The notes under the pieces are model-generated. The model ran no database searches, was not told the DNA's origin, and worked only from the letters and a program-made list of their open reading frames with translations. A DNA stretch of 64,000 nt from a virus (lineage: Duplodnaviria > Caudoviricetes), in IMG/VR virus record IMGVR_UViG_3300044695_006401; one strand, 5' to 3'. The position numbers and the translations under genes are program-made. Below, piece by piece: positions 4,838 to 54,745 of this stretch (position 1 is its first letter; each line of letters opens with the position of its first letter).

Positions 4838-4946
4838 CTATTTTTTCTTTTTTCCCTCTCCAAAAGAAAACCCTTTGATTTATGTTTTATAGATAAATAT
4901 TACCTGAGTAAAGTTTATCCACCAAAAAGAAAAATTAAATAATTAT

Positions 4947-10900: not shown

Positions 10901-13043
10901 CTGAAGATCCGCTAGTCCCGTCTGTACCGCTCGTTCCATCGGTACCGCTAGAACCTGATGTTCCGTCTGTCCCTGAAGAACCTGAAGTTCCGCTAGTTCC
11001 ATCCGTACCTGAAGTTCCGCTAGTTCCATCCGTACCTGAAGATCCGCTAGACCCATCTGTTCCGCTAGTCCCTGAAGTTCCATCTGTACCATTAGTGCCT
11101 GATGTTCCGCTAGTCCCTGAAGTTCCATCTGTTCCGTTAGTTCCACTTGAACCATTTGTTCCATTCGTTCCGCTAGTACCATTCGTTCCGTTTGTACCTG
11201 ATGTTCCGTTTGTACCATTAGTTCCCGAAGTTCCGTTTGTACCACTTGAACCATTTGTTCCTGATGTACCGTTAGTTCCATTTGTGCCTGAGCTTCCGCT
11301 AGTACCATTTGTTCCACTAGAACCATCTGTACCATTTGTTCCCGAAGTTCCGTCTGTACCATCTACACCCGATAAACCACTAGTTCCGTTTGTACCTGAC
11401 GATCCATCGGTACCGTTTGTTCCGCTAGTTCCGCTAGTTCCATTCGTACCTGAAGACCCATTTGTACCGTTAGTTCCTGATGAACCATTAGTTCCATTTG
11501 TGCCCGATGATCCGTTAGTTCCATCAGTGCCGCTTGTACCATTGGTTCCGTTTGTTCCTGAAGTCCCATTAGTTCCATCATTACCACTCGTACCATCTGT
11601 ACCACTAGACCCATCTGTTCCACTAGTACCATCAGTACCGTTTGTTCCGCTACTTCCGCTTGTTCCGTTTGTACCTGAAGTACCATCAGTACCGTTTGTT
11701 CCTGAAGATCCGTTAGATCCGTTAGTTCCGTTTGTACCTGAGGTACCGTCAGTACCACTAGTCCCATTAGTACCAGATGTACCGTTTGTACCGGAAGTAC
11801 CATCAGATCCTGAAGTACCATTTGTTCCAGATGTTCCGTTAGTTCCATTAGTACCGCTAGTACCATTCGTTCCATTTGTTCCTGAAGACCCATTTGTGCC
11901 GTTAGTTCCTGATGATCCGTCTGTACCACTAGACCCATCAACACCACTTGTTCCATTTGTACCTGAAGACCCGTTAGTACCATTGGTACCACTACTTCCT
12001 GAAGTCCCATTTGTACCTGATGTACCATCGGACCCCGAAGACCCATTAGTCCCCGAAGTTCCACTCGTACCATTAACTCCCGAAATACCACTAGTACCAT
12101 CAGTACCATTTGTTCCTGATGTCCCACTTGACCCGTTAGCAGTTATTCCTGTAATAGAAACAACTCCATTGTCAGTTCTAAATAATTCAATTGTACTTGA
12201 CGCTGAATAGTATGTTCCTCCGGTCACATATATGTCTGTAAAACCAGTTAAAAACCCTGTTACATTGAATGTTCCTCCCGTATTATTTGTAAAAGTCGCA
12301 GTACCATTATTTGGGTCATAGGTACCACCTGTGACAACTATTTCAGGAGGTAAACCTAAATAAGTTGTTGCAGAAAAACTACCATTAACAGTCAAACCTG
12401 TAAAATCATTTACAGTTGTAGAGTAAGTCCCGCCTGTCACATCAAATATCGTAAATGTATTATTACCATATGTAAAAGCAGAAATACCACTTCCTTGACC
12501 ACCTGTTGTAAATTTTCTCCATGTCGAATTACTACCTCCACCATTATAACCTTCAACAGTATTTCCTGTCCAAGCATTTATAAAAGCAATACCCGCGGCA
12601 CTATTAGATTTTACAGTTGTACCAAATTCTGAAACAACTACAGTGGATCCACCAGGACCTGTTGCCCCTGTGGCATTATTCCATAATGTTTGGTAGTTTG
12701 GAATTTGAAATTGATATACTTCTTGTGTTTCTTGAACATAAGCCAACATACCTAATCTTCTTCTTCCTGAAGAGATGTTATCTGATCCAAGTGTTAATAC
12801 ATCAGGTGAAAATATAGACCCTGTTCCTTTTTGTAATTGAATAGGGATAGTATTACCTGATATTTCTATATATCCTGTTGAACCTGATGGTACGGTGAAA
12901 AATAAGTCACTTATATTGTATACCTCCATGTACCCACCAACTCCTAAAATACTGAAGTTTGTTCCATAGGTACTTGTTCTAGATACTGAACTTGCACCTA
13001 GTACATTTATTGGGGTTATTGGGTTTTTATATAATCCAGACAT
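4947..13043 (-). CDS. 2698-aa collagen-like fibre protein: N-terminal globular region, ~1290-aa G-X-Y repeat, internal C1q/BclA-like domain, ~800-aa repeat, C-terminal globular domain
   Basis: ORF track. Uninterrupted Gly-every-third repeats (GTS/GTN/GTD/GSS) at ~8275-12140 and ~5385-7790, with a beta-rich insert at ~7800-8260. Confidence 0.85.
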   Translation of the reverse strand: MSGLYKNPITPINVLGASSVSRTSTYGTNFSILGVGGYMEVYNISDLFFTVPSGSTGYIEISGNTIPIQLQKGTGSIFSPDVLTLGSDNISSGRRRLGMLAYVQETQEVYQFQIPNYQTLWNNATGATGPGGSTVVVSEFGTTVKSNSAAGIAFINAWTGNTVEGYNGGGSNSTWRKFTTGGQGSGISAFTYGNNTFTIFDVTGGTYSTTVNDFTGLTVNGSFSATTYLGLPPEIVVTGGTYDPNNGTATFTNNTGGTFNVTGFLTGFTDIYVTGGTYYSASSTIELFRTDNGVVSITGITANGSSGTSGTNGTDGTSGISGVNGTSGTSGTNGSSGSDGTSGTNGTSGSSGTNGTNGSSGTNGTSGVDGSSGTDGSSGTNGTNGSSGTNGTNGTSGTNGTNGTSGTNGTSGSDGTSGTNGTSGTNGTSGTDGTSGTNGTNGSNGSSGTNGTDGTSGTNGTSGSSGTNGTDGTSGTDGSSGTDGTSGNDGTNGTSGTNGTNGTSGTDGTNGSSGTNGTNGSSGTNGTNGSSGTNGTSGTSGTNGTDGSSGTNGTSGLSGVDGTDGTSGTNGTDGSSGTNGTSGSSGTNGTNGTSGTNGSSGTNGTSGTNGTNGTSGTNGTNGTSGTNGTNGSSGTNGTDGTSGTSGTSGTNGTDGTSGTSGTDGSSGSSGTDGTSGTSGTDGTSGTSGSSGTDGTSGSSGTDGTSGTDGTSGSSGTNGTNGTSGSSGTNGTSGSSGTSGTDGTNGSSGTDGTSGSSGTDGTSGTSGTDGTNGTSGSSGTDGTSGSSGTNGTDGTSGSSGTNGTDGTSGTDGTSGTDGTSGTDGTSGTDGTNGTSGSSGTDGTSGTSGSSGTDGTSGTSGSSGTSGSSGTSGSSGTDGTSGTSGSSGTDGTSGTSGSSGTDGTSGTSGSSGTSGSSGTDGTSGTSGSSGSSGTDGTSGTSGSSGTDGTSGTSGSSGTDGTSGTSGSSGTDGTSGTNGTSGTDGTSGSNGTNGTSGTNGTSGTNGTNGTSGTNGTSGTNGTSGTNGTNGTSGTNGTNGTSGTNGTSGTNGTSGTNGTNGTSGTNGTSGTNGTSGTNGTNGTSGTNGTNGTSGTNGTSGTNGTNGTSGTNGTSGTNGTSGTNGTNGTSGTNGTSGTNGTNGTNGTSGTNGTSGTNGTSGTNGTNGTSGTNGTNGTNGANGTSGTNGTDGTSGTDGTSGTNGTDGTDGTSGTNGTDGTSGTNGTDGTSGTNGTDGSSGTDGTSGTNGTDGTSGTNGTDGTSGTDGTSGTDGTSGTDGTSGTNGTNGTNGTDGTSGTDGSSGTNGTNGTSGTNGTNGTSGTNGTNGTSGTNGTDGTSGTDGTNGTSGTDGTSGTNGTDGTSGSDGTSGTNGTDGSSGTNGTSGTNGTDGTSGTNGTDGSSGTNGTSGTNGTDGTSGTNGTSGTNGTNGTSGTNGTSGTNGTNGTSGTNGTSGTNGTNGTSGTNGTNGTSGTNGTSGTNGTNGSSGTNGTSGTNGTNGTSGTNGSSGTNGTSGTNGTNGTSGTNGTSGTSGTNGTSGTNGTSGTNGTNGTNGTSGTNGTNGTSGTNGTSGTNGTNGTSGTNGTNGTSGTNGTSGSSGAGVANYYAQYSSSLTQQVSGANTPTVVTYNTVEIENGISVVSGSRVTVQYSGIYEFSFSPQVEKNQGGAAVDVDFFVRKNGTNIIRTDSILGLVSNSVKQLPFVSIVADLQQNDYLELVFASTSEDVQLTAEAAQTSPYIAPAAPSIIVTIKNIGVAAVAYTSTSGTNGTNGSSGTSGTNGTNGTSGTNGTSGTNGTSGTNGTNGTSGTNGTSGTNGTNGTSGTNGTNGTSGTNGTNGTNGTSGTNGTSGTNGTSGTNGTSGTNGTNGTNGTSGTNGTNGTSGTNGTNGTSGTNGTSGTNGTNGTSGTNGTNGTSGTNGTSGTNGTSGTNGTNGTSGTNGTSGTNGTNGTSGTNGTSGTNGTSGTNGTNGTSGTNGTNGTSGTNGTSGTNGTNGTSGTNGTNGTSGTNGTNGTSGTNGTNGTSGTNGTSGTNGTSGTNGTNGTSGTNGTNGTSGTNGTSGTNGTSGTNGTNGTSGTNGTSGTNGTSGTNGTNGTSGTNGTSGTNGTSGTNGTNGTSGTNGTSGTNGTNGTSGTNGTNGTSGTNGTSGTNGTNGTSGTNGTSGTNGTSGTNGTSGTNGTNGTSGTNGTNGTSGTNGTSGTNGTSGTNGTNGTSGTNGTNGSSGTNGTSGTNGTNGTSGTNGTSGTNGSSGTNGTNGTSGTNGTNGTSGTNGTNGTSGTNGTSGTNGTNGTSGTNGTSGTNGTNGTSGTNGTSGTNGTNGTSGTNGTSGTNGTSGTNGTNGTSGTNGTSGTNGTNGTSGTNGTNGTSGTNGTSGTNGTSGTNGTNGTSGTNGTSGTNGTNGTSGTNGTNGTNGTSGTNGTSGTNGTNGTSGTNGTNGTNGTSGTNGTSGTNGTNGTSGTNGTNGTSGTNGTSGTNGTNGTSGTNGTSGTNGTSGTNGTSGTNGTNGTSGTNGTSGTNGTNGTSGTNGTSGTNGTSGTNGTSGTNGTSGTNGTSGTNGTNGTSGTTPIVPGADNEVLTSDGSGNIVAESGFTYNGSDGTLTLNSTHSLVNTTSLTNISSGQVVESYGTDIGCGAIFEYCVTENGGAKRIGQVYAVWNNTNGDGTDVSSPDLGGSTANFVWKVQVSGGSVELACAIGGGTWTILVSTRIIF

Positions 13044-33085: not shown

Positions 33086-34360
33086 ATGTTAGTAGAAAAG
33101 CTCCAAAATATCCCAAAAAGTAGTGGTTGTTACCTTTTTAAAGATAAAAAAGGTCAAATTATCTATGTAGGTAAGGCAAAATACCTCCCAAATAGGGTAA
33201 AATCGTACTTTTCTAACAAAAATCACCCAAGTAAGACCCAATTATTGGTAGAAAACATTGTAGATGTGGATTTTTTGACAACTTTAGACGAAAATTCCGC
33301 ATTTATTTTAGAAAATGATCTAATTAAGACCCATAATCCTAAATTTAACATCAAATTGAAGGATGATAGGTCAAAAAAATGGTATTTAACCCTTACAAAT
33401 GACGATTTTCCTCGTTTAGAGGTTAAAAATGATACTAATTTGGACTCAGACCCTTTAATTGAGGTTCCAAGTAGTAGTATGTGTCATGAAATGTATGATT
33501 TATTACACGATATCTTTAATTTACGCTCATGTTCTTATGAATTAACACCTGAAAACATTGAAAATAACAAGTTTAAGGTGTGTTTAGAGTCCCATATGGG
33601 TAGATGTGACGCACCATGTGTATCAAATATTAATAAATTTATCTATCGTGAGGTAATATCTGAACTAAAACAGGTGGTTTTATACAATTTTGACCAATTG
33701 CGAGGTAAATTAATTCGTAAAATGAACGCATTTAGTAAAATTATGGAGTTTGAGAAGGCAAATACTATTAAATTTAGACTAAATGCCCTTGATAAGTACG
33801 AAAAATGTGTAGAATCTGCAAGAATTGGTGGTTATTTGGTGATTGCTGATGAGTTTAAGACTACTTTTGGTCTACAAAACACCCCAATTGACATAGAAAT
33901 GTACGATAACTCCCACACTAATGGGGATTGTCAGGTGTCTGCCCTTGTTAGATACACAAATGGTAAGAAAAACACATCAGAATACCGTAAATTCAACATT
34001 AAAACCGTTGTTGGTCCTGATGATTATGCTTCATTTGATGAGGTTTTACGAAGAAGGTTTACAAGATTACTTAAAGAACGGTCAAAATTACCAGATTTAG
34101 TGATCATCGACGGTGGTAAAGGTCAATTAGGTATAGCAAAGAGAGTATTTGACGAACTTTCACTATCTAATCGTATAGATTTACTATCTATATCTAAAAA
34201 CTCACAGCACAGGTCAGATATTATACATTTTACTGATGGAAATAGTGTAAAATTTGAAAATAAAAAGTTTTTTAACTTACTTGCAACAATTCAGAATGAG
34301 GTTCACCGATTTGTTATTACATTTCACAGAAAAAAAAGGAGTAAATCAGTTATTGGATAA
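33086..34360 (+). CDS. uvrC: Excinuclease ABC subunit C (short form, no C-terminal HhH)
   Basis: GIY-YIG N-terminus (SGCYLFKD...IYVGKA..L..RVKSYF), UVR segment and RNase H-like domain (YDNSH, DDYASF, PDLVIIDGGKGQL, IQNEVHRF). Confidence 0.92.
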   Translation: MLVEKLQNIPKSSGCYLFKDKKGQIIYVGKAKYLPNRVKSYFSNKNHPSKTQLLVENIVDVDFLTTLDENSAFILENDLIKTHNPKFNIKLKDDRSKKWYLTLTNDDFPRLEVKNDTNLDSDPLIEVPSSSMCHEMYDLLHDIFNLRSCSYELTPENIENNKFKVCLESHMGRCDAPCVSNINKFIYREVISELKQVVLYNFDQLRGKLIRKMNAFSKIMEFEKANTIKFRLNALDKYEKCVESARIGGYLVIADEFKTTFGLQNTPIDIEMYDNSHTNGDCQVSALVRYTNGKKNTSEYRKFNIKTVVGPDDYASFDEVLRRRFTRLLKERSKLPDLVIIDGGKGQLGIAKRVFDELSLSNRIDLLSISKNSQHRSDIIHFTDGNSVKFENKKFFNLLATIQNEVHRFVITFHRKKRSKSVIG

Positions 34361-46509: not shown

Positions 46510-46814
46510 AATATATTTCTTTAGTTATAAATACTCCGATTTTCCCAAAATTTTCTGGAATTTTTTTTTAGTGTATAGGGGGTATTCCGATTTTTAAAGA
46601 TTTTTTCCCAAAATATTTTTTAAGACCATATTACCTTTTTTAAAACTTATACTCTGCAAGGGGGATTGACCCCCATTTTGGACCCTGTCAAAGTGTCAGA
46701 AAGAGGGGGGATACGGGGGAGGGGGACCCCAATTATTAAGGGGAGGGGGGTATGCCAAACAAAGAGGGGGACCTATAAGACCCCCCAATTGTTAATAAGT
46801 ATTTTATATGGTGA

Positions 46815-47078
46815 TTAGTATTGTACAGGCGATAACTTCTTATCCTTAATACAGTTCATTGCAGTTATTGCTTTCATCCCCACACCCATAGGATCTTTAG
46901 ATGCCATTTCTAAAAGAGCTTCAATACATTTGCCAGGATCTCCTGCTGTACAAGCCATAGGTACAGTGATCCCTGCAGATTTACAACATGCTGACAACTC
47001 TTTAGTGGGGGCAACTTGTTCAGACAATACTCTACTTACTATACGATCTATGTCTGATTCATTTAATCTTCTTCTCAT
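46815..47078 (-). CDS. Leader-bearing Cys-containing small protein
   Basis: MRRRLNESDIDRIVSRVLSEQ; five Cys. Confidence 0.75.
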   Translation of the reverse strand: MRRRLNESDIDRIVSRVLSEQVAPTKELSACCKSAGITVPMACTAGDPGKCIEALLEMASKDPMGVGMKAITAMNCIKDKKLSPVQY

Positions 47079-47097
47079 TGTTTTATTTTTTAATGTT

Positions 47098-47209
47098 AAT
47101 TTTATTTTTTACTTATATAAATATTAAGCCATGTCAAAAAAAATCCATACCTTAATTTTATTTTTTACTTATATAAATATTAGGCCATGTCAAAAAAAAT
47201 CCATACCTT
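47098..47209. repeat. Tandem 56-bp duplication of a promoter-containing segment
   Basis: 47098-47153 and 47154-47209 are identical except for one base (attaagcc/attaggcc). Confidence 0.9.
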
Positions 47210-47339
47210 TGTAGTGTAACCTTTTTAATCGGGGGGGACCGAGTAGACTCCAACCTGCCTTATATTTTTATATAAGGATCCCCATCTTTTTGTGAAGGAC
47301 CCTCTTGTCCTTGTCGAAATGTTTTCATATCTTTATAGT

Positions 47340-47513
47340 ATGAAAACAATTCTATTTATAAATCTTATGTTCGCTTATATTGTCATTGGAGCTTCTATCT
47401 TCATGGGGGTTTGTTTAATGTCCCTTAAGTATTTCCCCACCTCTAAAGTAAGTGGATTCATTCGTCGTCATGTTATTACTGATGTTGACTTGGATCCTCC
47501 CCATCAGGACTAA
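47340..47513 (+). CDS. Small membrane protein
   Basis: Start re-called to 47340 (MKTILFINLMFAYIVIGASIFMGVCLMSL...); TACCTTTG at 47204-47211. Confidence 0.55.
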   Translation: MKTILFINLMFAYIVIGASIFMGVCLMSLKYFPTSKVSGFIRRHVITDVDLDPPHQD

Positions 47514-47820
47514 AGAATTTCTCTACATGTTCTATACTCATATTAACTATGAGTGATCTTATTTCTTGGTAGTCATTTTCTGACAGGTTATAGTATTGAT
47601 TTAAAAACTGTAACACATCCCCCATGTCTGCATCCACAATTACAAATTGTCTTTTACTAAGGATTGGTTTCTTGGACCACTTCTTTTTTGCAAACTCAAA
47701 AAATACAACCCCATCATCTGTGAGTCCTTGCTTATGTTTGAATAAACATTTGATCCCCATCTTATCTTCTACCACACATTGGGTATACTGTTCTTTAAGA
47801 AATTTCTCTATTGCGTTCAT
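47476..47820 (-). CDS. Hypothetical protein
   Basis: 114-aa ORF; TATTTAT upstream. Confidence 0.6.
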   Translation of the reverse strand: MNAIEKFLKEQYTQCVVEDKMGIKCLFKHKQGLTDDGVVFFEFAKKKWSKKPILSKRQFVIVDADMGDVLQFLNQYYNLSENDYQEIRSLIVNMSIEHVEKFFSPDGEDPSQHQ

Positions 47821-48301
47821 ATGTACCGTTAATGTTAATAAATATTTGATACATTTTAAATAGTAAATTGGGGGTGACAGTATGTCAGGGGGGAATTGTT
47901 GATAAATATTTATTGTATTTTTCTTGATTTTGTCAAAATGTCAGTCACGATTCACACAGGGGACAATCCCTTTCCCCACTTTTTACCACACAGGTCTACC
48001 ACTATTTACCACCACAATCCCCTCTGTTGCTATGATCAGCCTAAAAAATCCCCTCTGTAGGGGTCTACAGGACTAGTTTTTTAGGTATATACATTTTCCA
48101 GCTAATTTGTGTTCTTATGATGAGGGTGGGCGGGAGACGATAGTCCTATAGTTCTTCCAACGATTAGGGGACCTAATGTACCCCCAATTATGTGTCATTT
48201 AGTCAGTCCCCAACACTTGTGGTAATATGTGGGACATATTAAACATATCACTTATATCAGGTTTAACCTGACAACAATGATATAAAACAACAGTCCCTTC
48301 G

Positions 48302-48350
48302 TATATGTTCCTGATCTTATTCACTCCCTTTAATAACGATAGTTTATATA
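48302..48350. repeat. 49-bp dispersed direct repeat, copy 1 (copy 2 at 50417-50465)
   Basis: tatatgttcctgatcttattcactcc(t/c)tttaataacgatagtttatata, one mismatch between copies. Confidence 0.85.
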
Positions 48351-48713
48351 ACTGAATACCACAGTAGAACATACCATTAAACCACACCATAAGAAATGGG
48401 GGACCTGTCTTTAGATGGGGGGAACTTACTAAGTAGTAACTTACCGAATGGTAAGTTGTGTATCATGTATACGATCTATACATAAGAACCTCATCATGTA
48501 TAAAGAATTAGATTTTCTATACATGTATATCGTAACCCCCATTACAGTAATGTACATTACGATACTATTCTACATTATGTGTTACACAAAATGTGTAATG
48601 ATCATTACGATAAAGTATATGTGGTAATTAATGGGACTTATCTCTTATAGAGATGTAATAGAATATCGGTTAAATGAACGATAATATACGATATCGGTTA
48701 TATAGACGATAAT

Positions 48714-48795
48714 AAGAGTGTAGAATTAAATTATGAGGTGAATTCCGTAGTGATAACGAAGGACTATGAACCGAATGAATTAATCCTATACTCTT
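48714..48795. repeat. Inverted-repeat element, copy 1
   Basis: AAGAGTGTAGAATTAAATT...AATTAATCCTATACTCTT; ends 1 nt from the stop of 48797-49453. Confidence 0.85.
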
Positions 48796-48796
48796 A

Positions 48797-49453
48797 TTAA
48801 AATTTTAAACCAAAGATTAGATTAACACCCATAGGTTTAGTGTCAAAACCAAAACCATATACAAACATATCATATTTTTCGAAAAGTACATTTGCCGTAA
48901 AATTTAACTTGTATGTGTTTTTTTCACTAACAACTTGATAATAAACATCTAAGTCTGAGAAAGACTCGTGGTAATCAACTAATTCTAAATTATAAAGTTG
49001 GAAATCAAAGTAAGAATTTTCTCTTACTAATTGGTGTCTTTCTTTACACACTCCTAAACCTAAATTGATTCTAATATCTGTACTACCGACAGTTATAATC
49101 TCTTTACCAACACCAATATTAAACAATGAGGGTTTAATTGCCGTACCGTATCTTGTTGTGATTGTTGATGATTCGTAAACATATGAACCCCACTCTGTAA
49201 CACCATATGAGTAGTTATCAAAATTTGTCTCTTCAGGAGTTGTCCATGTTTTAACTCTATCTTGAGCTGGTAACATTCCTCCGATTTTGTAGTCAAAGAA
49301 AATAGTGTAGTTTTTTACCGTTTTCTCTACTGAGAATCCCCAAGCCGCTTTTGGTAAATTACCATTATATAGTAATGAAACTCCTATTTGTTTTTGTGAA
49401 AAAGAAACAATTGATACTAAAGAAACAAGAGCAACTAAAAGAAGGTTTTTCAT
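48797..49453 (-). CDS. Putative outer-membrane beta-barrel protein
   Basis: Signal peptide (…VSIVSFS-Q), amphipathic strands, C-terminal beta-signal GVNLIFGLKF; TATCTTTG at 49483-49490. Confidence 0.75.
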   Translation of the reverse strand: MKNLLLVALVSLVSIVSFSQKQIGVSLLYNGNLPKAAWGFSVEKTVKNYTIFFDYKIGGMLPAQDRVKTWTTPEETNFDNYSYGVTEWGSYVYESSTITTRYGTAIKPSLFNIGVGKEIITVGSTDIRINLGLGVCKERHQLVRENSYFDFQLYNLELVDYHESFSDLDVYYQVVSEKNTYKLNFTANVLFEKYDMFVYGFGFDTKPMGVNLIFGLKF

Positions 49454-49565
49454 ATTGTGATGGGGGTTAAATGATTACAATACAAAGATAGTGATATTCC
49501 TCATATCTACAATGAAAAAGTCAAGTTTTTTTTAAATAAAAATCCCCTTATAAAGAGAGGGGGGA

Positions 49566-49652
49566 AAGAGTATAGAATTAAATTATGAAACGAAGAATGT
49601 AGTGAATGAAATGAACGGTAATGATGAGTGAGTAAATTAAATCTATACTCTT
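49566..49652. repeat. Inverted-repeat element, copy 2
   Basis: AAGAGTATAGAATTAAATT...AAATTAAATCTATACTCTT; 3 nt from the stop of 49656-50000. Confidence 0.8.
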
Positions 49653-49655
49653 GAT

Positions 49656-50000
49656 TTATATCTGACAAGTAATATTATTTCCGTTAACCTCACAAGTAAT
49701 TTGCTTTTCTAATAAAGTCTTTAACTTTAACTCTAATACACTTTTAATCTTATTGACATCGGAATAGTTTTGTATTTCATATTCTACATATGTTATATCT
49801 TCTGAGGTAATCTGCGTAAGATCTGAGATATTTCTTAACTCATTTAATATAACATAATCTATTGTGTCTCCATTACACTTATTACACTCTCTTTGTACAT
49901 CACCATTGATTGTAATATTAACTGTACTCATATCCTCTTTAATTACTCTATGGACTAAGTTAATCAATTCACTTTCAGTAAGTCTAATAATTTTTTTCAT
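49656..50000 (-). CDS. Leader-bearing small protein
   Basis: MKKIIRLTESELINLVHRVIKED. Confidence 0.75.
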   Translation of the reverse strand: MKKIIRLTESELINLVHRVIKEDMSTVNITINGDVQRECNKCNGDTIDYVILNELRNISDLTQITSEDITYVEYEIQNYSDVNKIKSVLELKLKTLLEKQITCEVNGNNITCQI

Positions 50001-50351
50001 TTAACAGAGTTGGTTTGCGTAAGTTATAAAGTCATCAGGTAATTTACTATATCCTCTTGGTGGTTTGATAACATTATCACCACACACCTTTACAATTGTA
50101 ATACCTTCAGGGTTTGTGATATTTGCTGGCGGATTCATCCATTTTAATTCTATAACCTTTGTATTAAAAGTTTTCTTCTCACCTCTAGGGTTTGTTTTGT
50201 CTACAGGTACAGACTTTGTTGAATCACTTACATTAACCACTTGATACTGATGAGTTTCTTGCCTCCCATCCATAACAAAACTAAATGTCTTTGTCGGATC
50301 AGATACTTCCATAATTTGACGAATTCTATATATACTCTCCTGTAAATTCAT
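50001..50351 (-). CDS. Leader-bearing small protein
   Basis: MNLQESIYRIRQIME. Confidence 0.75.
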   Translation of the reverse strand: MNLQESIYRIRQIMEVSDPTKTFSFVMDGRQETHQYQVVNVSDSTKSVPVDKTNPRGEKKTFNTKVIELKWMNPPANITNPEGITIVKVCGDNVIKPPRGYSKLPDDFITYANQLC

Positions 50352-50389
50352 ATTAAATAAATATACCCATATTAAATAAATATACCCAT
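50352..50389. repeat. Tandem 19-bp duplication containing the TATTTAT motif
   Basis: attaaataaatatacccat x2. Confidence 0.85.
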
Positions 50390-50416
50390 AATATATTATA
50401 TAAACTGTTATATTCT

Positions 50417-50465
50417 TATATGTTCCTGATCTTATTCACTCCCTTTAATAACGATAGTTTATATA
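50417..50465. repeat. 49-bp dispersed direct repeat, copy 2
   Basis: Matches 48302-48350; runs directly into inverted-repeat copy 3. Confidence 0.85.
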
Positions 50466-50544
50466 TAGGATAAATTTGTGAGGTGAATTCCGTAGTGAGT
50501 TTACGAACGGTAGGATGGAGTGAATGATTTGATCGTATACTCTT
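50462..50544. repeat. Inverted-repeat element, copy 3 (left end degenerate)
   Basis: ...TGAGGTGAATTCCGTAGTGA...GAATGATTTGATCGTATACTCTT, abutting the stop of 50544-51032. Confidence 0.75.
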
Positions 50545-51032
50545 TATTTATACTTAAGGATCCTTTGTACTATTGGATTAGATAAGAATTTCTCCGTATC
50601 TTTCTTTACTTTATCTACATTACAGAATCTACTATTAAAGAACATATCAGGGATTGTATCACTTTCTTCATCCCATACATTTATCTCATACTCTTCAGGT
50701 GTTATTGTAAGTTGTCTATTATACCAATCATCTATTCTTTCCTCCACCTTATCCAATGTAATGAATCCATTGGAATCTAATAACTTATCCCCGATCTTTA
50801 TATATACGTGCAACAAATACTCCTGTTCTATCTCTTCCGTGTCAATATTAACCTCGTTTGCCAGTAAAAGATAGTAAGTTACGTTTTTGTTCGGGAAACG
50901 TTCCCTAATCTTATCTATGATGTTATGTGCGAAGTAATGGCAATACCCGTGCTGATAGTCGTAATTCCCGTCGTTCCATTTGGACTCAAGGGTTTCTCTT
51001 AATATTCTCCTTACTCGTTCTTGTAGATTCAT
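50544..51032 (-). CDS. Leader-bearing protein with HGYCH motif
   Basis: MNLQERVRRILRET; GYCHYFA...LLHVYIKIGDKLLDSNG could be a transglutaminase/papain-like Cys-His-Asp fold (uncertain). Confidence 0.6.
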   Translation of the reverse strand: MNLQERVRRILRETLESKWNDGNYDYQHGYCHYFAHNIIDKIRERFPNKNVTYYLLLANEVNIDTEEIEQEYLLHVYIKIGDKLLDSNGFITLDKVEERIDDWYNRQLTITPEEYEINVWDEESDTIPDMFFNSRFCNVDKVKKDTEKFLSNPIVQRILKYK

Positions 51033-51068
51033 AATAATAAATATATTATAAATAAAAACCCCCCATCT

Positions 51069-51788
51069 TTACAATGAAGGGTCCCCTAATAATTCATTTG
51101 TTAGATCTATATACTTAGAATCAATCTCTATCCCTATAAAATCTCTATTATTATTTCGAGCCACAATTGCTGAGGTTCCTGATCCTAAGAACGGATCTAA
51201 ACATAAATCATTCTCTTCTGTCGTTAACAACATACATGTCTCTACTAACTTCTTTGGGAATGGTGCTGGATGTTTTGTATTCTTGTCAGGATTGATTATC
51301 CACACCTCAGACTGATACTCACTTGGTATCTGATCTTTGAATACCTTAGGTTTACCCTTTGTTAACCAATAGATATGTTCTGTACACGGCAACAATAGAT
51401 CCTTTCTAATGTTAGGACTTGACAGACGATTCCATATAATTAATTGATATACATTTAAGTCCGACTTGGAGATAAAGTCTGTAGGAAGATGCAACTTGTT
51501 CTTATGTCTTCTCGCTTTATGATTGAAGAATATTGATCCATCAGGTTTAATGATTCTCTTCATCTCATTTAATACATCGATCATCCAGTTATGGTAATCA
51601 ACCTCACTTAGATCATCCCCATATGAATCATAGTCAATATTAAATTTCTTCCATACTTGATTGCCAGGTTTTACCTTACCGATCAATCCTTTCTTGTTAT
51701 ACGGAGGACTTGTAACTATACACGCAATTGAGTCTGATGGGATCTTTCTCATCTCGTCAATACAATCCCCCATTCTTAAATCTATCAT
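51069..51788 (-). CDS. Beta-class DNA methyltransferase (N4-C or N6-A)
   Basis: Motif IV TSPPY near the N-terminus, HPAPFP, and motif I DPFLGSGTS near the C-terminus. Confidence 0.92.
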   Translation of the reverse strand: MIDLRMGDCIDEMRKIPSDSIACIVTSPPYNKKGLIGKVKPGNQVWKKFNIDYDSYGDDLSEVDYHNWMIDVLNEMKRIIKPDGSIFFNHKARRHKNKLHLPTDFISKSDLNVYQLIIWNRLSSPNIRKDLLLPCTEHIYWLTKGKPKVFKDQIPSEYQSEVWIINPDKNTKHPAPFPKKLVETCMLLTTEENDLCLDPFLGSGTSAIVARNNNRDFIGIEIDSKYIDLTNELLGDPSL

Positions 51789-51800
51789 ACTTAAATATAA

Positions 51801-52550
51801 TTATTTTCTCTCAGAAATCAATTCCTTGATCTTCTCATAATTGTGATGAAATTGTAGACCTCCCTGATGAAATTGTAGGTGACCAAATGGTAACTGAATG
51901 GTTGTTCCTCCATTCTTTGTTCCATATATAACATCACGCCCTTTTGATTTCTCAATGATCTCGTTGATGTCAAATTTCTCATTAACTTGGTTGTCACCGA
52001 GTTTGTTAACATACCATAAGATGTCAACCCAATCACCTTCATTTTTGCTCCATCCCTTCTTAAAAACCAACTCCGTGATGTTGTGTAAGTTGTCCTTGAA
52101 CCATAACTTAAACTCATTTGAGAGATCCTCATTATATTTGATCAAAGTCTCAGTGGTGATGGTCTTTCTTCTAACTTCAGTTGCTCTAACCTTAGGATTC
52201 TGATGTATGCAATCCTCACAAGATAAAACCTCATCAATGATATCACTACCACCAAACAATAATAAAAACACCTTTGATACATTTGACGGAATCTCACCAT
52301 ACATGATCGTATAACCATCTAAGAAACGACCAACCTTATTCATGTGAACCTGACCACTTAATGATTTTTTTAGACTATGTCTTTTTACACCATAAATGTC
52401 TGGCTTAGGAGTTGTTTTGTCACCGAAGATAGATTCTACCTTACCAGCAAGAGTGTAGTATCCATCACCCAACTCTTCGCTGACTAACGATTCATTCTTG
52501 TGCCCGCTTAATTTGGCGTATGTCCATCCTTGACTTCGGTTCCTTTTCAT
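51801..52550 (-). CDS. Putative type II restriction endonuclease
   Basis: Adjacent to the MTase; KPDI...HSLKK resembles a PD-(D/E)xK variant; own TATCTTTG at 52555-52562. Confidence 0.6.
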   Translation of the reverse strand: MKRNRSQGWTYAKLSGHKNESLVSEELGDGYYTLAGKVESIFGDKTTPKPDIYGVKRHSLKKSLSGQVHMNKVGRFLDGYTIMYGEIPSNVSKVFLLLFGGSDIIDEVLSCEDCIHQNPKVRATEVRRKTITTETLIKYNEDLSNEFKLWFKDNLHNITELVFKKGWSKNEGDWVDILWYVNKLGDNQVNEKFDINEIIEKSKGRDVIYGTKNGGTTIQLPFGHLQFHQGGLQFHHNYEKIKELISERK

Positions 52551-52583
52551 ATAACAAAGATACTATATAATTTTGACTCAGCC

Positions 52584-52663
52584 AAGAGTATAGGATAAAA
52601 TTATGAGGTGAATTCCGAACGCAGTGTAGGACTATGAACCGAATGATTTAATCGTATACTCTT
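52584..52663. repeat. Inverted-repeat element, copy 4
   Basis: AAGAGTATAGGATAAAATTATGAGGTGAATTCCG...GGACTATGAACCGAATGATTTAATCGTATACTCTT; overlaps the stop of a 29-aa ORF. Confidence 0.85.
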
Positions 52664-52751
52664 AATCTTTAATCCCGATTATATAAATTATGATCATCAT
52701 ACAGGTTGAGAATAACCCGATCGACATACTAATTATTTGTTCTAATTCCAT
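52662..52751 (-). CDS. 29-aa single-TM peptide (not in ORF track)
   Basis: MELEQIISMSIGLFSTCMMIIIYIIGIKD*. Confidence 0.5.
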   Translation of the reverse strand: MELEQIISMSIGLFSTCMMIIIYIIGIKD

Positions 52752-52752
52752 A

Positions 52753-53037
52753 TTATATTTTTTTATAAAAATCTCTTCTTTCTACTACGCATAACACACG
52801 GAAGTTATAAGGAAACAAATTTTCCATACTGTATCTTATCTCCTCACAAACAGTTTTACTATTTGGTTGTATGTCTCTTCTATGTCTTATGTAGTCTAAG
52901 TAATTTTCACTCTTAATATTAATCGTATACAAATCAAAAAACTCACAAAACTCTATTTTAACCTCATCACATGGTAATGGGTTTACAAACTTGAAGTAAT
53001 CTAATATAAGTTTTTCTATTTTATCTCGGTCTTTCAT
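52753..53037 (-). CDS. Hypothetical protein
   Basis: Likely start MKDRDK at 53037. Confidence 0.6.
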   Translation of the reverse strand: MKDRDKIEKLILDYFKFVNPLPCDEVKIEFCEFFDLYTINIKSENYLDYIRHRRDIQPNSKTVCEEIRYSMENLFPYNFRVLCVVERRDFYKKI

Positions 53038-53290
53038 GTCTTGACTTTGATAGTTTTGCAAAATTTGGTTTGACATAAACAAATACCGTATACTCCACAT
53101 CTGATGGTAGAAATGTTTTTAGTTTGTTCCTTATTCTTTCTGTCATATGCATTTGTTTAAATGCCAATGTATCTATAGATGTCACTTTGGTTGAATCTAT
53201 TTCACTATTGACATGATACACCCCTTCCACAAGTGTTACTTTTACTTGTGGTTCATCAAGTACTGAAATAATATATTGTTCTAAACCCAT
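53021..53290 (-). CDS. Hypothetical protein
   Basis: Likely start MGLEQY at 53290. Confidence 0.6.
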   Translation of the reverse strand: MGLEQYIISVLDEPQVKVTLVEGVYHVNSEIDSTKVTSIDTLAFKQMHMTERIRNKLKTFLPSDVEYTVFVYVKPNFAKLSKSRHERPR

Positions 53291-53598: not shown

Positions 53599-54018
53599 TT
53601 ACATATAATCCAAATAATCATCGTTGATTTGTGACATTTCATCAACTAAACTGAAAATTTCCTCATCAGATAAAACTGAAAGTCTTTCGAAACTTCCAGC
53701 AACTACTCTACCTATTGAATCTACTTCATTTACTCCTATTGTAACTACACCATAAGATAAATAAAATGAATCTACTATTTTATTTGGTGATATTTGTATA
53801 GATAGATCCCAACCTATTTCATCTTTTTCTAAAAAGTCTTTTATGTATCTCTCAAAGACTTCTCTTGGTAGTTCTCCTGTCTTTGTATAGATTTGTGGAA
53901 GAGATAGTCCTGTCATCTTCATAAATTCATATAAACCATGTTGGTTTAAGAGTGTAAGTAATGATTGTTTTTGACTCTCTTCTCTGAGTACTTTTCTTAT
54001 GTTTTCTTGTAGTTTCAT
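53599..54018 (-). CDS. Leader-bearing protein; stand-alone homologue of the last polyprotein module
   Basis: Start re-called to 54018 (MKLQENIRKVLREE); QSLLTLLNQHGLYEFMKMTGL. Confidence 0.8.
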   Translation of the reverse strand: MKLQENIRKVLREESQKQSLLTLLNQHGLYEFMKMTGLSLPQIYTKTGELPREVFERYIKDFLEKDEIGWDLSIQISPNKIVDSFYLSYGVVTIGVNEVDSIGRVVAGSFERLSVLSDEEIFSLVDEMSQINDDYLDYM

Positions 54019-54449
54019 TACTTTTTCTTCTTCACACAATTGGGATAACGTTTACCAAACATAGTCTTCATACCTTTTTGAGTATATCCTTTCCAACATC
54101 TTTCTGTTAGTTCACCCTCTTTCATTTCTTGTTGACTTCTTCCTTTTTTATAATTTTGACAGTCCTGACCATCTGAAACGGAAACATATATTGCTTTTAA
54201 CGGGATATAATTATTAAGATATTCTTGAAGTTCCTCACGATAAGATGACTTAAGTTGTTCTTCAACTATCAAAATAACTAAATATTGGTCTTCAAAAGAT
54301 TCTAACGCACTAACAACTAATGTACATATATTAAAATTAACATAATCAAGGATAAGATTTTTAATTAACTTTGAATACTTGTCATCAGAAATTTTATAAT
54401 ATGTCTCTTCCTTTAGTATCTTTCTTATATGTTCTTGTAGGTTCATCAT
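54018..54449 (-). CDS. Leader-bearing protein with C-terminal CWKGY...PNCV minidomain
   Basis: MNLQEHIRKILKEE...ELTE-RCWKGYTQKGMKTMFGKRYPNCVKKKK. Confidence 0.75.
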   Translation of the reverse strand: MMNLQEHIRKILKEETYYKISDDKYSKLIKNLILDYVNFNICTLVVSALESFEDQYLVILIVEEQLKSSYREELQEYLNNYIPLKAIYVSVSDGQDCQNYKKGRSQQEMKEGELTERCWKGYTQKGMKTMFGKRYPNCVKKKK

Positions 54450-54745
54450 AACTTTTCTTTTACATAATCCACCAATGGCTTCTCAAACATAATATATGAA
54501 TCCCAATATTCTTGTTCAGACGAACTAAGAAATCTAAAATTCTTACTGGATGCAATAAATTGTCTTACGGTATCGTATATTGCGTCGGTTCTATCATAAC
54601 CCGAATCAATTAAACCTTTCACATCATCAACCAAGTCATCTAATTTTTCTATTGTCACCCTTCTTATAATGTATGTCGGTAGATGAGACTCATTAATAAC
54701 CCCCATCATTGATTTCATTCTTGATATTTGTTCTTGTAGGTTCAT
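54446..54745 (-). CDS. Leader-bearing small protein
   Basis: MNLQEQISRMKSMMGVINE. Confidence 0.75.
   Translation of the reverse strand: MNLQEQISRMKSMMGVINESHLPTYIIRRVTIEKLDDLVDDVKGLIDSGYDRTDAIYDTVRQFIASSKNFRFLSSSEQEYWDSYIMFEKPLVDYVKEKL

Follow-up and report, generated by a model that had tools for sequence, protein, structure and literature searches.

Introduction

In T4-type phages, promoter-early stem-loops (PeSL/PmSL) have been proposed to be exchanged when their repeated copies recombine (Arbiol et al. 2010, PMC2839356; Comeau et al. 2014, PMC4122927). The DUF1874 motif is an uncharacterized, covariation-supported motif that occurs in consecutive intergenic regions (Weinberg et al. 2017, PMC5737381). 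The attC sites (59-base elements) of integrons are imperfect hairpins found at the 3' ends of cassette ORFs. The ssi or primosome assembly sites (ColE1 n'-pas, G4-type ssi, and RSF1010 ssiA/ssiB) are approximately 40-140 nt in length, depend on orientation, and function only as one DNA strand; multiplication as cassette borders is not known for them.

In a 64-kb stretch of Caudoviricetes DNA (the window), an earlier note had described four inverted-repeat elements of about 80 bp. Here we report that these repeats belong to a previously uncatalogued family of folded elements that are approximately 80-90 nt in length. Sixteen copies were found in 15 IMG/VR contigs, and scanning with the core alone brought in a further 15 or so viral contigs and at least 120 contigs from metagenomes. 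The core-anchored scans of low-GC lake metagenome and IMG/VR contigs yielded at least about 104 unique elements. The element was not found in cultured phages and was absent from 185,579 representative bacterial genomes, where all 13 pattern matches were due to chance; no Rfam family, including the DUF1874 motif, matched the element region. The carriers are uncultured T4-like jumbo phages of lakes that probably infect Bacteroidota. Their genomes contain 1-4 copies of the element, and most have a single copy without an array.

Four copies of the element in the window

The copies, the cassettes between them, and the adjoining locus are arranged as follows.

47476-47820, minus strand: 114-aa gene, the conserved partner of the non-coding region (NCR) and the element
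47821-48713: conserved NCR, without credible ORFs and always flanked by the primary copy of the element
48714-48795, plus strand: copy 1, type A core; covariance model R1, 49.6 bits
48797-49453, minus strand: cassette 1 (copies 1-2), a 218-aa protein with a signal-peptide-like N-terminus that had been labeled a putative OM barrel
49566-49652, plus strand: copy 2, type C core; covariance model R1, 82.8 bits
49656-50351, minus strand: cassette 2 (copies 2-3), two small genes of 116 and 114 aa
50413-50465: 53-nt repeat, 98% identical to 48298-48350
50462/3-50544, plus strand: copy 3, a hybrid with a left core of type A and a right core of type B; covariance model, 53.3 bits
50544-52550, minus strand: cassette 3 (copies 3-4), a 249-aa gene, a methyltransferase, and a 162-aa leader-bearing gene
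52584-52663, plus strand: copy 4, type A core; covariance model, 44.7 bits
52662-52751, minus strand: 29-aa hydrophobic ORF; copy 4 supplies, with its first two bases, the end of the TAA

A covariance model derived from relatives gave exactly four matches in the 64 kb with scores of 45-83 bits, the next best being 17 bits, and a 23-nt end pattern matched four times in the window against 0.03 expected. These results bear out the positions and plus-strand orientation given in the earlier note, and no further copy lies elsewhere in the window. The core strings reported as shared were found as well: TGAGGTGAATTCCG is common to copies 1, 3, and 4, and GGACTATGAACCGAATG to copies 1 and 4. The four copies comprise three subtypes and one hybrid, which fits acquisition from different donors. 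Copy 3 is the only A/B hybrid among 116 instances, and its crossover falls inside shared CCGTAGTGA. This copy is decayed and folds poorly (z -1.1). Its left outer arm is gone, with TATATATAGG where AAGAGTATAGG is expected, which corrects the earlier note. In place of this arm, or directly beside its former position, lies the 53-nt repeat, which constitutes the promoter or 5' region of the minus-strand gene that comes next.

Each copy had been placed 0-3 nt from the stop codon of the preceding gene. The spacing is correct for copy 1, which adjoins the NCR at the latter's right edge and lies 1 nt from the stop of gene 48797-49453, and for copy 2, which lies 3 nt from the stop of gene 49656-50000, whereas copies 3 and 4 overlap stops by 1 nt (gene 50544-51032) and 2 nt, respectively. 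A stop is present at copy 4, but it is that of the 29-aa ORF and not of a larger gene. The ATG of this ORF is found 1 nt past the stop of gene 52753-53100; if the ORF is not real, the distance from copy 4 to the next gene is 89 nt. Copy 4 lies 34 nt upstream, in inverted orientation, of the ATG at 52550, which is seen beside the copy together with a TATCTTTG promoter box. As had been remarked, no U-tract follows any of the copies; ordinary terminators are found nearby on the minus strand at 49544-49560, where the terminator flanks copy 2, and at 51054-51086.

Cassette 1 has its own TATCTTTG promoter box at 49483-49490, and the first gene of cassette 2 opens with an MNLQExIxR cargo leader. The gene labels proposed earlier were sound for the methyltransferase: the N6/N4 DNA methyltransferase at 51069-51788 matches PF01555 (1.3e-41) and phrog_67, and this was the only family found among the 10 ORFs around the copies. 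Neither the 218-aa "OM barrel" nor the "REase", the putative nuclease of 249 aa, had a match in Pfam, NCBIfam, or PHROG.

A covarying fold on one strand

The element forms a long imperfect hairpin. The sequence of its outer stem varies while pairing is kept, and at least six sequence classes of outer stem surround the same conserved purine-rich core. In the core, short Watson-Crick steps alternate with tandem G·A/A·G pairs and lead to the apex CGUAGUGA...GAACGG. Across 84 sequences, pairing was present in 89% of cells versus 35-50% with slid partners, and double changes were found in 20 of the 28 pairs (281 cells). The covariation score of 0.371, compared with at most 0.14 in slid controls, was reached by none of 500 shuffles. 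Core pair 28-66 is UA in 35 cases, CG in 26, and UG in 16. Judged from these alignments, the element is a selected structure and not a transposon end.

The stems contain 216 G·T and 3 A·C pairs, and the one-by-one mismatches are purine·purine. Folded as RNA, the plus strand has energies of -17 to -26 kcal/mol and the minus strand -9 to -16 kcal/mol (-25.4 versus -16.3 for copy 1); with DNA parameters, the hairpins are only marginally stable at -6 to -11 kcal/mol. The fold is thus predicted to form from the purine-rich strand only, antisense to the neighboring genes. For this reason, the structured 3'-UTR RNA suggested in the earlier note is not supported as worded, in that the selected fold is antisense to the upstream gene. 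The position at junctions, together with a fold that forms only from the strand opposite the genes, argues against both a jumping MITE and an ordinary terminator.

A fixed locus beside the NCR

The order of small gene, NCR of 0.7-1 kb, and element is maintained in constant orientation in 34 loci, down to 28% protein identity. Homologues of the 114-aa gene in these loci are 28-76% identical; their distance to the element is 0.66-1.05 kb, and the relative orientation is the same without exception. A structural model of the protein (pLDDT 82) had no match in the PDB. In two jumbo genomes with completeness ratings of 99-100%, the element occurs once, exactly at this place. The synteny of the NCR and its conserved blocks, which include many conserved motifs, are kept in 30 aligned loci. 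A bidirectional terminator lies inside the NCR at 48050-48071. The conserved 5' block has no consensus fold on either strand, and GC skew shows no inflection at the NCR, which may be an origin or a regulatory region.

The orientation of the element tracks the NCR and not the neighboring gene. Variant stem classes are in sense orientation directly upstream of a TAnnTTTG promoter; the canonical class is antisense and abuts a stop codon. An upstream stop lies within 3 nt of the element end in 56 of 119 distinct copies, and it is often completed by the element's AA. As an orientation-dependent structure at a fixed place, the element may resemble ssi sites, which lie beside a replication region; the likeness supposes that the NCR is an origin.

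The element as a module junction

Additional copies are always direct, in 11 multi-copy loci as in the window, and they bracket cassettes of accessory or injected-cargo genes beside the fixed locus. Among pairs with identical cores, 142 share neither flank, 119 share the NCR-side flank only, and 27 share the gene-side flank only; L001/L049/L101, L065/L148, and L105/L160 are examples of loci in which the same element has different neighbors. Homology between phages ends at the edges of the element. Between the window and L056, it ends at the end of gene 52753-53100, and at the same site L056 has an ordinary terminator and promoter where the window has copy 4. These flank comparisons show that the element behaves as a module junction, joined to different neighbors in different phages. 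Sharp edges of homology could also result from strong purifying selection on the element within fast-evolving flanks.

The five carrier contigs searched contained no HUH/TnpA-REP enzyme or tyrosine recombinase above cut-off: PF00589, PF00239, and PF00078 were absent, and PF01797 appeared below cut-off only. Neither of two essentially complete carrier genomes encodes an integrase, a resolvase, a reverse transcriptase, or a confident HUH transposase. In the window, 48 ORFs located outside 47.4-57.8 kb likewise gave no such recombinase or transposase family. There are weak RecA/UvsX-like ORFs.

Like PeSLs, the element is a conserved intergenic stem-loop followed by the promoter of the next gene, clusters in the hyperplastic regions that T4-like genomes have, amid small ORFan, internal-protein, or modification genes, and lies at indel and replacement breakpoints. 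PeSLs are short, G/C-clamped terminator hairpins in the transcription sense, whereas the element is 80-90 nt in length with a purine-rich core and an antisense fold. The promoter belongs to the conserved unit in PeSLs; the promoter or flank that adjoins the element does not. Unlike PeSLs, one copy of the element is fixed in a conserved non-coding locus. We favor, with a probability of roughly 45%, the reading that the element is a PeSL-like module junction exchanged by homologous recombination, the fold of which may be read as single-stranded DNA or antisense RNA.

Alternative interpretations

A serious competitor, which we consider possible, is a small structured ncRNA, or the 3'-terminal domain of a longer NCR transcript, corresponding to the purine-rich strand. 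The tandem-G·A helix and AGUGA apex of this RNA would be recognized by a protein of the phage or the host, and the copies at cassettes would be additional genes or relics. RNA modules that bind proteins typically have tandem sheared G·A motifs and a conserved apical loop, and the element resembles them. It admits G·U pairs with the freedom known from RNAs (216, against 3 A·C), and the predicted stability of the fold is much greater for RNA than for DNA. The low copy number is gene-like, the orientation relative to the NCR is constant, and the same strand has, about 600 nt upstream and immediately past the bidirectional terminator, a well-conserved promoter-like box of near-consensus sequence, TACATTTT. 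However, a host-type TAnnTTTG promoter is found within 80 nt upstream on the element strand in only 3 of 96 instances, left flanks are heterogeneous, no terminator follows the element, and in most loci it is antisense to all neighboring genes. Also difficult to reconcile with an ncRNA are the absence of an Rfam match, the 5' NCR block that is conserved without a consensus fold, and the location of copy 2 within a minus-strand 3' UTR, upstream of that gene's terminator.

An element that acts in the gene sense within 3' UTRs, as a factor-dependent terminator, insulator, or mRNA stabilizer in the slot of the terminator half of a PeSL, is unlikely. In one form of this proposal, a C-rich, G-poor loop held by the outer stem would be a Rho loading site, and the core in gene sense is indeed about 33% C and 8% G. 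The close spacing to stops in about half of the copies, the promoter of the next gene that comes after, and the terminator and promoter of L056 at the site of copy 4 are consistent with such a role. The selected pairing is nevertheless on the other strand, and the inner helices, read in the sense of the genes, turn into C·A and pyrimidine·pyrimidine mismatches. The proposal is further opposed by the missing U-tract, by the regular terminator after copy 2, by L004 and L006, in which the element comes after a terminator, and by approximately 16 variant-class copies located upstream of a co-directional promoter where no gene ends.

Still less likely is an attC-like single-strand site for an unrecognized recombinase, which would make an integron-like cassette array in a phage. 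This was the best of the three readings in the earlier note, by resemblance only: like attC, the element is an imperfect hairpin, of comparable length, that lies at the 3' ends of cassette ORFs and often overlaps the stop, with an antisense-strand fold and a stem conserved more in structure than in sequence. It forms direct arrays of n cassettes and n+1 sites beside a fixed platform, mosaic breakpoints fall at the element, and one site is a hybrid. The DUF1874 motif offers a precedent for consecutive intergenic regions without an integrase (PMC5737381); it too is structured, has a conserved internal loop, is repeated from one ORF to the next in the absence of a nearby integrase, and is a case in which sequence alone cannot decide between RNA and single-stranded DNA. 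The DUF1874 motif differs from the element in sequence, fold, and host range, and it lies in apparent 5' UTRs in sense orientation. The integron GTTRRRY core was already noted as missing, and we found no RYYYAAC/GTTRRRY boxes. Unlike attC, the element is without R''/L''/L'/R' boxes, has 1x1 purine mismatches and not extrahelical bases, and is conserved at its apex and not its base. No IntI, attI, or Pc platform is present, the cassettes are equipped with promoters of their own, the majority of genomes have one copy and no array, and complete carrier genomes are without a tyrosine or serine recombinase, with no HUH enzyme above cut-off. The absence of R''/R' boxes, the apical conservation, and the absence of a tyrosine recombinase indicate that the element falls outside the attC family.

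A non-autonomous transposon (MITE) or REP-type repeat, also proposed earlier, is very improbable: the element's inverted-repeat ends, small size, intergenic positions, and identical copies amid unrelated flanks (142 pairs) are contradicted by covarying stems of at least six outer classes on the same core, no target-site duplication (flank pairing was no better than shuffled), only 1-4 clustered copies per genome, one copy syntenic in 34 loci, absence from the representative bacterial genomes, and no transposase or RAYT in window ORFs or carrier contigs.

Discussion

Several points weigh against the reading of the element as a PeSL-like junction. The excess of G·T over A·C, at 72:1, is what one would sooner expect of RNA, the hairpins gain little stability with DNA parameters, homologous recombination alone leaves the conservation of the fold, beyond that of sequence, unexplained, and the model makes no specific prediction of the stop precision of 3 nt or less in about half of the copies. 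As a PeSL-like junction, the element would allow co-infecting phages to swap modules by homologous recombination across the shared ~85 bp, a route proposed for PeSLs and suggested here by the absence of a site-specific recombinase. The strand-specific, covarying fold suggests that, in addition, the element is read in single-stranded form, and we slightly favor DNA over RNA (about 55:45). The single-stranded element would appear on the lagging-strand template of forks that leave the adjacent NCR, or, alternatively, as an RNA that is antisense to the genes. In the former case, the exposed strand would serve as a structure for priming, loading, or the initiation of recombination.

Four copies of a folded element

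Direct inspection of the sequence placed four copies of a folded repeat of 80-90 nt, here called the element, where the earlier note had put them, all in one orientation. A covariance model built from relatives recovered these four copies only when applied to the 64-kb window (45-83 bits; next match, 17 bits), and a 23-nt left-end pattern has four matches in the window against 0.03 expected. Each copy contains a purine-rich inner core, for which subtypes A, B, and C are known, and variable paired arms that form the outer stem. Copies 1 and 4 carry core A and copy 2 carries core C. Copy 3 is an A/B hybrid in which a type-A left core is joined to a type-B right core; its left arm is lost and its fold is poor.

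Elements, cassettes, and neighboring features of the window
47476-47820, minus strand, 114-aa partner gene
47821-48713 (and 46660-47475), non-coding region (NCR) of ~0.9 kb, ORF-free and block-conserved across at least 30 phage loci
48714-48795, plus strand, element copy 1
Between copies 1 and 2, minus strand, cassette 1: secreted-looking 218-aa protein
49566-49652, plus strand, element copy 2
Between copies 2 and 3, minus strand, cassette 2: two small genes
50462-50544, plus strand, element copy 3
Between copies 3 and 4, minus strand, cassette 3: putative nuclease, N6/N4 methyltransferase, and 162-aa gene
52584-52663, plus strand, element copy 4
50001-50351, 50544-51032, 53599-54039, 54018-54449, and 54446-54745, minus strand, five small genes with an MNLQExIxR/MKLQENIRK leader

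Credible genes around the copies all lie on the minus strand. The claim that each copy directly follows the stop of such a gene held, with one correction: every copy begins within 3 nt of, or overlaps, an upstream minus-strand stop, and at copy 4 this stop is that of a 29-aa ORF. This ORF (52662-52751, minus strand) is strongly hydrophobic (MELEQIISMSIGLFSTCMMIIIYIIGIKD) and translationally coupled to the preceding gene, and its TAA is completed by the first two bases of copy 4; a small membrane peptide and a chance ORF are both possible. Downstream of copy 4 lie TATCTTTG, 4 nt, and then an ATG. As had been remarked, no U-tract follows any of the four copies. The terminator scan called none of them as an intrinsic terminator, though it called three or four real-looking ones nearby, and the sequence after the copies is not T-rich on either strand.

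Two DNA repeats were observed in the same region. One, of 53 nt and 98% identical (48298-48350 and 50413-50465), lies upstream of two different minus-strand units; the other is a perfect 2 x 19-nt tandem repeat (CATATTAAATAAATATACC; 50349-50386) immediately before the ATG at 50351. The DNA of promoters and leaders has been duplicated here, with different genes behind it.

Structure and covariation

Among copies anchored on the core, one core is surrounded by at least six unrelated outer-stem sequences in which pairing is kept (AAGAGTATAGGAT.../...ATCGTATACTCTT, ATAATGAAAGAAT.../...ATTCTTTCATTAT, ATAAATGGGGGAAT.../...ATTCTCTCATTTAT, AATAATACTATATG..., and others). The outer stem is no terminal repeat of fixed sequence. 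The core forms a continuous helix, as read from the alignment, built of two-base Watson-Crick steps with tandem G·A/A·G pairs between them (UGAA facing UGAA). Where type B has two Watson-Crick pairs, type C has a further G·A/A·G tandem.

The earlier note had proposed folding the element and testing it for covariation. An alignment of 84 sequences, scored against a 28-pair structure, revealed strong covariation. Pairing was found in 89% of cells, compared with 35-50% when partners were slid by 1-3 columns, and changes on both sides occurred in 20 of the 28 pairs (281 cells). The covariation score was 0.371, with slid controls at or below 0.14, and none of 500 shuffles reached any observed measure. 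Core pair 28-66, for example, is U-A in 35 sequences, C-G in 26, and U·G in 16.

Distribution of the element

A two-ended pattern identified 16 homologous copies in 15 IMG/VR contigs. Later searches used core strings only, so that the ends of the element were not biased; they added ~15 viral contigs of 20-304 kb and, in metagenomes, at least 120 contigs with the element. After removal of high-GC chance matches, ~104 distinct elements remained among the matches listed, nearly all in low-GC lake or freshwater contigs. The same core pattern had 13 matches in 185,579 representative bacterial genomes, all of them high-GC chance matches without a hairpin, and cultured phages (INPHARED) yielded no match to the 12-kb region, the element, or the 114-aa partner protein. 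Rfam 15 gave no match overlapping any copy, even at E up to 10, and none in the adjacent NCR; assignment to a described RNA family was dropped on this ground. The element is far more general than the four repeats of the window. With some 100 distinct copies among the matches listed, strong covariation, and no Rfam entry, it ranks with the better-supported structured motifs that are still uncharacterised.

The phage of the window is present in 20 lake-water runs. Type IX secretion sorting domains in its proteins and TAnnTTTG promoter boxes point to a host among the Bacteroidota. At one end of the window (1-13043), G+C content is 42-49%, compared with ~31% elsewhere, AT skew is strongly negative, and frames are open in several phases, with ORFs of 2698 aa and of more than 1600 aa; this composition suggests giant repetitive, low-complexity genes.

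The selected structure belongs to the purine-rich strand

In 102 unique elements, the stems contain 216 G·T or T·G pairs but only 3 A·C or C·A pairs. Their 1x1 mismatches are A·A, G·G, and A·G, and G·T pairs and mismatches alike would be non-pairs on the complementary strand. RNA folding of copies 1-4 gave -25.4, -17.0, -16.2, and -26.1 kcal/mol on the plus strand, compared with -16.3, -12.2, -8.7, and -16.2 kcal/mol on the minus strand. The pair bias and the folding energies together assign the selected structure to the strand rich in purines. In the window, all neighboring genes run antisense to this strand. The element is therefore a selected, strand-specific structure, and this excludes a site read by protein as double-stranded DNA. 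An ordinary terminator in the sense of the genes is excluded by a fold selected on the opposite strand; for the same reason the structured 3'-UTR RNA suggested by the earlier note is not supported, since the selected fold is antisense to the upstream gene.

The strand bias does not distinguish RNA from single-stranded DNA, being compatible with both, and the two are hard to tell apart from sequence (PMC5737381). That the element acts as an RNA made from the purine-rich strand is nearly as likely as the DNA-level role favored below. The 72:1 preference for G·U and the far greater stability of the fold as RNA argue for it; with DNA parameters, the strand asymmetry is smaller and the hairpins are marginal (-6 to -11 kcal/mol). 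Against it stands the lack of a promoter or terminator on the element's strand. No host-type TAnnTTTG box lies upstream on that strand, a TATAGAAA-like box at -11 occurs in just 13 of 96 instances, and no terminator follows the element.

Position and orientation follow a conserved non-coding region

In 56 of the 119 distinct instances among the matches listed, the stop of an antisense ORF of 45 codons or more falls no further than 3 nt from the end of the element; most commonly the TAA consists of one flanking T and the terminal AA of the element. For most copies of the canonical AAGAG class, the flanking genes to left and right both run antisense (37 clear cases). In variant stem classes, copies are often co-directional with the downstream gene and lie directly upstream of a TAnnTTTG promoter and a near-leaderless ATG. 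Local transcription does not set the orientation of the element.

The NCR locus has a fixed arrangement. In 34 loci, the order is a homologue of the 114-aa gene (76% down to 28% identity), an ORF-free stretch of 0.66-1.05 kb, and the element, always in the same relative orientation. The 114-aa protein has a good predicted model (pLDDT 82) that matched no PDB entry with E below 0.1. A single copy, exactly at this locus, is present in each of two jumbo contigs with a completeness rating of 99-100% (304 and 292 kb). Because orientation follows the NCR and not the local genes, we slightly favor a role for the element at the DNA level.

The NCR contains strongly conserved blocks, several repeated motifs, and a bidirectional terminator (48050-48071) with an A-run before it and a T-run after it. 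Next after this terminator comes an almost invariant block, TATATACATTTTCCAGCTAAAAA..GCGGGAGACGAAGTCCTATAG..TCCAACG. The conserved 5' block has no consensus fold on either strand, and the NCR may be an origin, a promoter cluster, or an RNA gene. Considered as a possible iteron, the apex motif of the element, ACGNAGTG, shows same-strand enrichment in the NCR of other loci, 400-700 nt upstream, but is absent from the window's own NCR.

The junction between NCR and element is a hot spot for short insertions. Short modules occupy it in the window (48658-48713) and in the left flanks of three other phage loci (L001, L013, and L138): the window has a 2 x 28-nt tandem repeat, ATCGGTTA..ACGATAAT, and other phages a 48-nt TTTACCGTATGG..GACGGTAAA hairpin module. 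A 25-bp motif with G-strand asymmetry, ATATGTCCCATTAATTACCACATAT, lies at 48620-48645, with a second copy at 48218-48239, and is found just left of the element in L005, L049, and ~25 other loci. It occurs in either orientation in otherwise collinear contexts, reading ATATGTGGTAATTAATGGGACATAT in some phages, and forms a small inversion polymorphism flanked by ATATGT/ACATAT.

Two further observations concern promoters. Just right of variant-class elements (L028, L046, L069, L079, L029, and others) lies a conserved gene family starting MVSxRLKDxIFKKLYxDLSxVEII. Where the operon on the right is co-directional, a member of this family usually comes first after the element, and it is expressed from a TATCTTTG box with a 5-nt leader. 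Separately, TATATTTAT (GTATTTA, TATTTAT) is enriched 10-17 fold in the 60 nt before minus-strand start codons (23 of 46 genes). It probably represents a middle or late promoter belonging to the phage itself and differs from the host-type TAnnTTTG boxes that precede cassette genes.

The element borders exchanged gene sets

Five contigs of 150-304 kb have 1, 1, 1, 2, and 1 copies, compared with the four clustered in the window; two copies occur at 11 other loci, always direct and 0.7-3 kb apart. The cassette region is placed between the conserved locus and cargo genes. The MNLQExIxR leader begins several cassette genes, genes beyond copy 4, and neighboring cargo proteins, and resembles a tag, for capsid targeting or as a protease site, on exchangeable cargo. 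Because cassette genes and cargo proteins have this leader in common, the region resembles the internal-protein locus of T4-type phages.

The earlier note had proposed to look for shuffled cassette order in relatives: homologues of the window's cassette genes occur in other combinations at other loci, and L153 has relatives of two genes from outside the window's array placed between two elements. Pairs of instances that are identical in the core comprise 142 with neither flank in common, 119 with only the NCR side in common, and 27 with only the gene side in common. Three loci (L001, L049, and L101) have the same gene end and element with different left flanks. The window and L056 are 76-87% identical in protein sequence over four genes, and homology ends at the stop of the gene at 52753-53100; past this point, L056 has a plain terminator and a TAGATTTG promoter and the window has the 29-aa ORF and copy 4. 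The element is thus a discrete module that borders the gene sets being exchanged. Assembled lake contigs end at the copies, over which depth rises 3-8 fold, as expected of a sequence common to co-occurring phages. Joints in lake contigs such as 48729 to 49589 were rejected as cassette deletions because of foreign letters and short sides.

Comparison with known systems

Of known elements, the PeSL is similar in several respects. PeSLs belong to a model of module exchange by homologous recombination in T4-type phages (PMC2839356, PMC4122927). Like them, the element lies in a hyperplastic region directly upstream of a promoter and the next ATG (copy 4; variant-class copies with TAnnTTTG), and homology between related phages ends at its edges, as in the L056 comparison and the loci named with it. 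However, a PeSL is a short terminator-type hairpin kept with its promoter, whereas the element is 80-90 nt long, lacks a U-tract, has a conserved core and a fold selected on the antisense strand, and is not conserved together with its flanks and promoter. Its length, core, and antisense-strand fold go beyond a PeSL, and something must therefore read the element as a single strand.

In geometry, the element would fit an ssi or primosome assembly site, occupying a fixed place and orientation beside a conserved NCR of 0.7-1 kb that is a candidate origin. Such ssi and pas sites act beside plasmid origins in priming, helicase loading, or strand invasion.

The earlier note's suggestion of a cassette junction analogous to the integron attC site stood as a resemblance: the folded strand is antisense to the cassette ORF, and the copies form direct arrays in the window and at 11 loci. 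Its caution that this is no canonical attC was also correct, since the RYYYAAC ... GTTRRRY boxes are absent and the ends are (T)AAGAG...CTCTT(A) or of other classes. The element lacks inverse core/core sites at the hairpin base, and its conserved part is apical. A search for an integron integrase (tyrosine recombinase, PF00589) found nothing in five carrier contigs, of which two have a completeness rating of 99-100%, although all control genomes matched; the family is also absent from the 48 window ORFs scanned and from 10 ORFs around the copies. Serine recombinases and reverse transcriptases were likewise absent from the five contigs. On the missing boxes, apical conservation, and lack of a recombinase in these contigs, membership in the attC family is rejected. 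A UvrC-like nuclease encoded at 33086-34357 (plus, the minority strand) combines a GIY-YIG domain with a UvrC RNase H endonuclease domain (1e-45); a nuclease specific for DNA structure might have a bearing on hairpins or branched DNA.

The proposal of a REP- or MITE-like element did not survive. Its stems covary, at least six outer-stem classes surround one core so that terminal inverted repeats are not kept in sequence, each genome has 1-4 clustered copies of which one is syntenic, and no transposase family was detected among the 48 window ORFs scanned or the 10 around the copies. The search for HUH/TnpA-REP proteins returned PF01797 at 18 bits, below the cut-off, in one of five carrier contigs. 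The ends of the four copies lack the direct repeats of a target-site duplication. In 83 instances, flank complementarity averaged 1.81 compared with 1.95 for randomly re-paired flanks, and co-variation or palindrome growth past the element's ends was not above control. N4-type hairpin promoters, DGR hairpins, CRISPR-repeat mimics, type III antitoxin repeats, and self-cleaving ribozymes were dropped for lack of a matching feature, as were retron ncRNAs, there being no reverse transcriptase in the five carrier contigs.

Proposed role

Recombination is central to T4-type replication. Given that role and the presence in carrier contigs of RecA/UvsX-like ORFs, themselves weak matches, we propose that in mixed infections exchange occurs by homologous recombination across the ~85 bp that copies have in common. 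Forks moving from the NCR towards the cassettes would make the purine-rich strand the lagging-strand template. By analogy with ssi and pas sites, a hairpin on this template could serve in priming, helicase loading, or strand invasion. We tentatively suggest, with a probability of roughly one in four, that the element represents a new class of structured single-stranded nucleic-acid site that lets jumbo phages capture and swap injected-cargo and anti-defence genes beside a fixed platform without an integrase, an integron-like system run by the phage replication and recombination machinery, or else a new class of protein-binding phage RNA with a tandem-G·A helix.

The element marks the exact joints at which injected and accessory genes are exchanged in uncultured lake jumbo phages, apparently of Bacteroidota, and its covariance model provides a sequence handle for variable "arsenal" regions in metagenomes. 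Its fold, opposite to transcription, offers a test case for separating functional single-stranded DNA from RNA. Should replication or recombination proteins be recruited by the fold, an origin-proximal DNA structure would be tied to modular evolution in T4-like phages.
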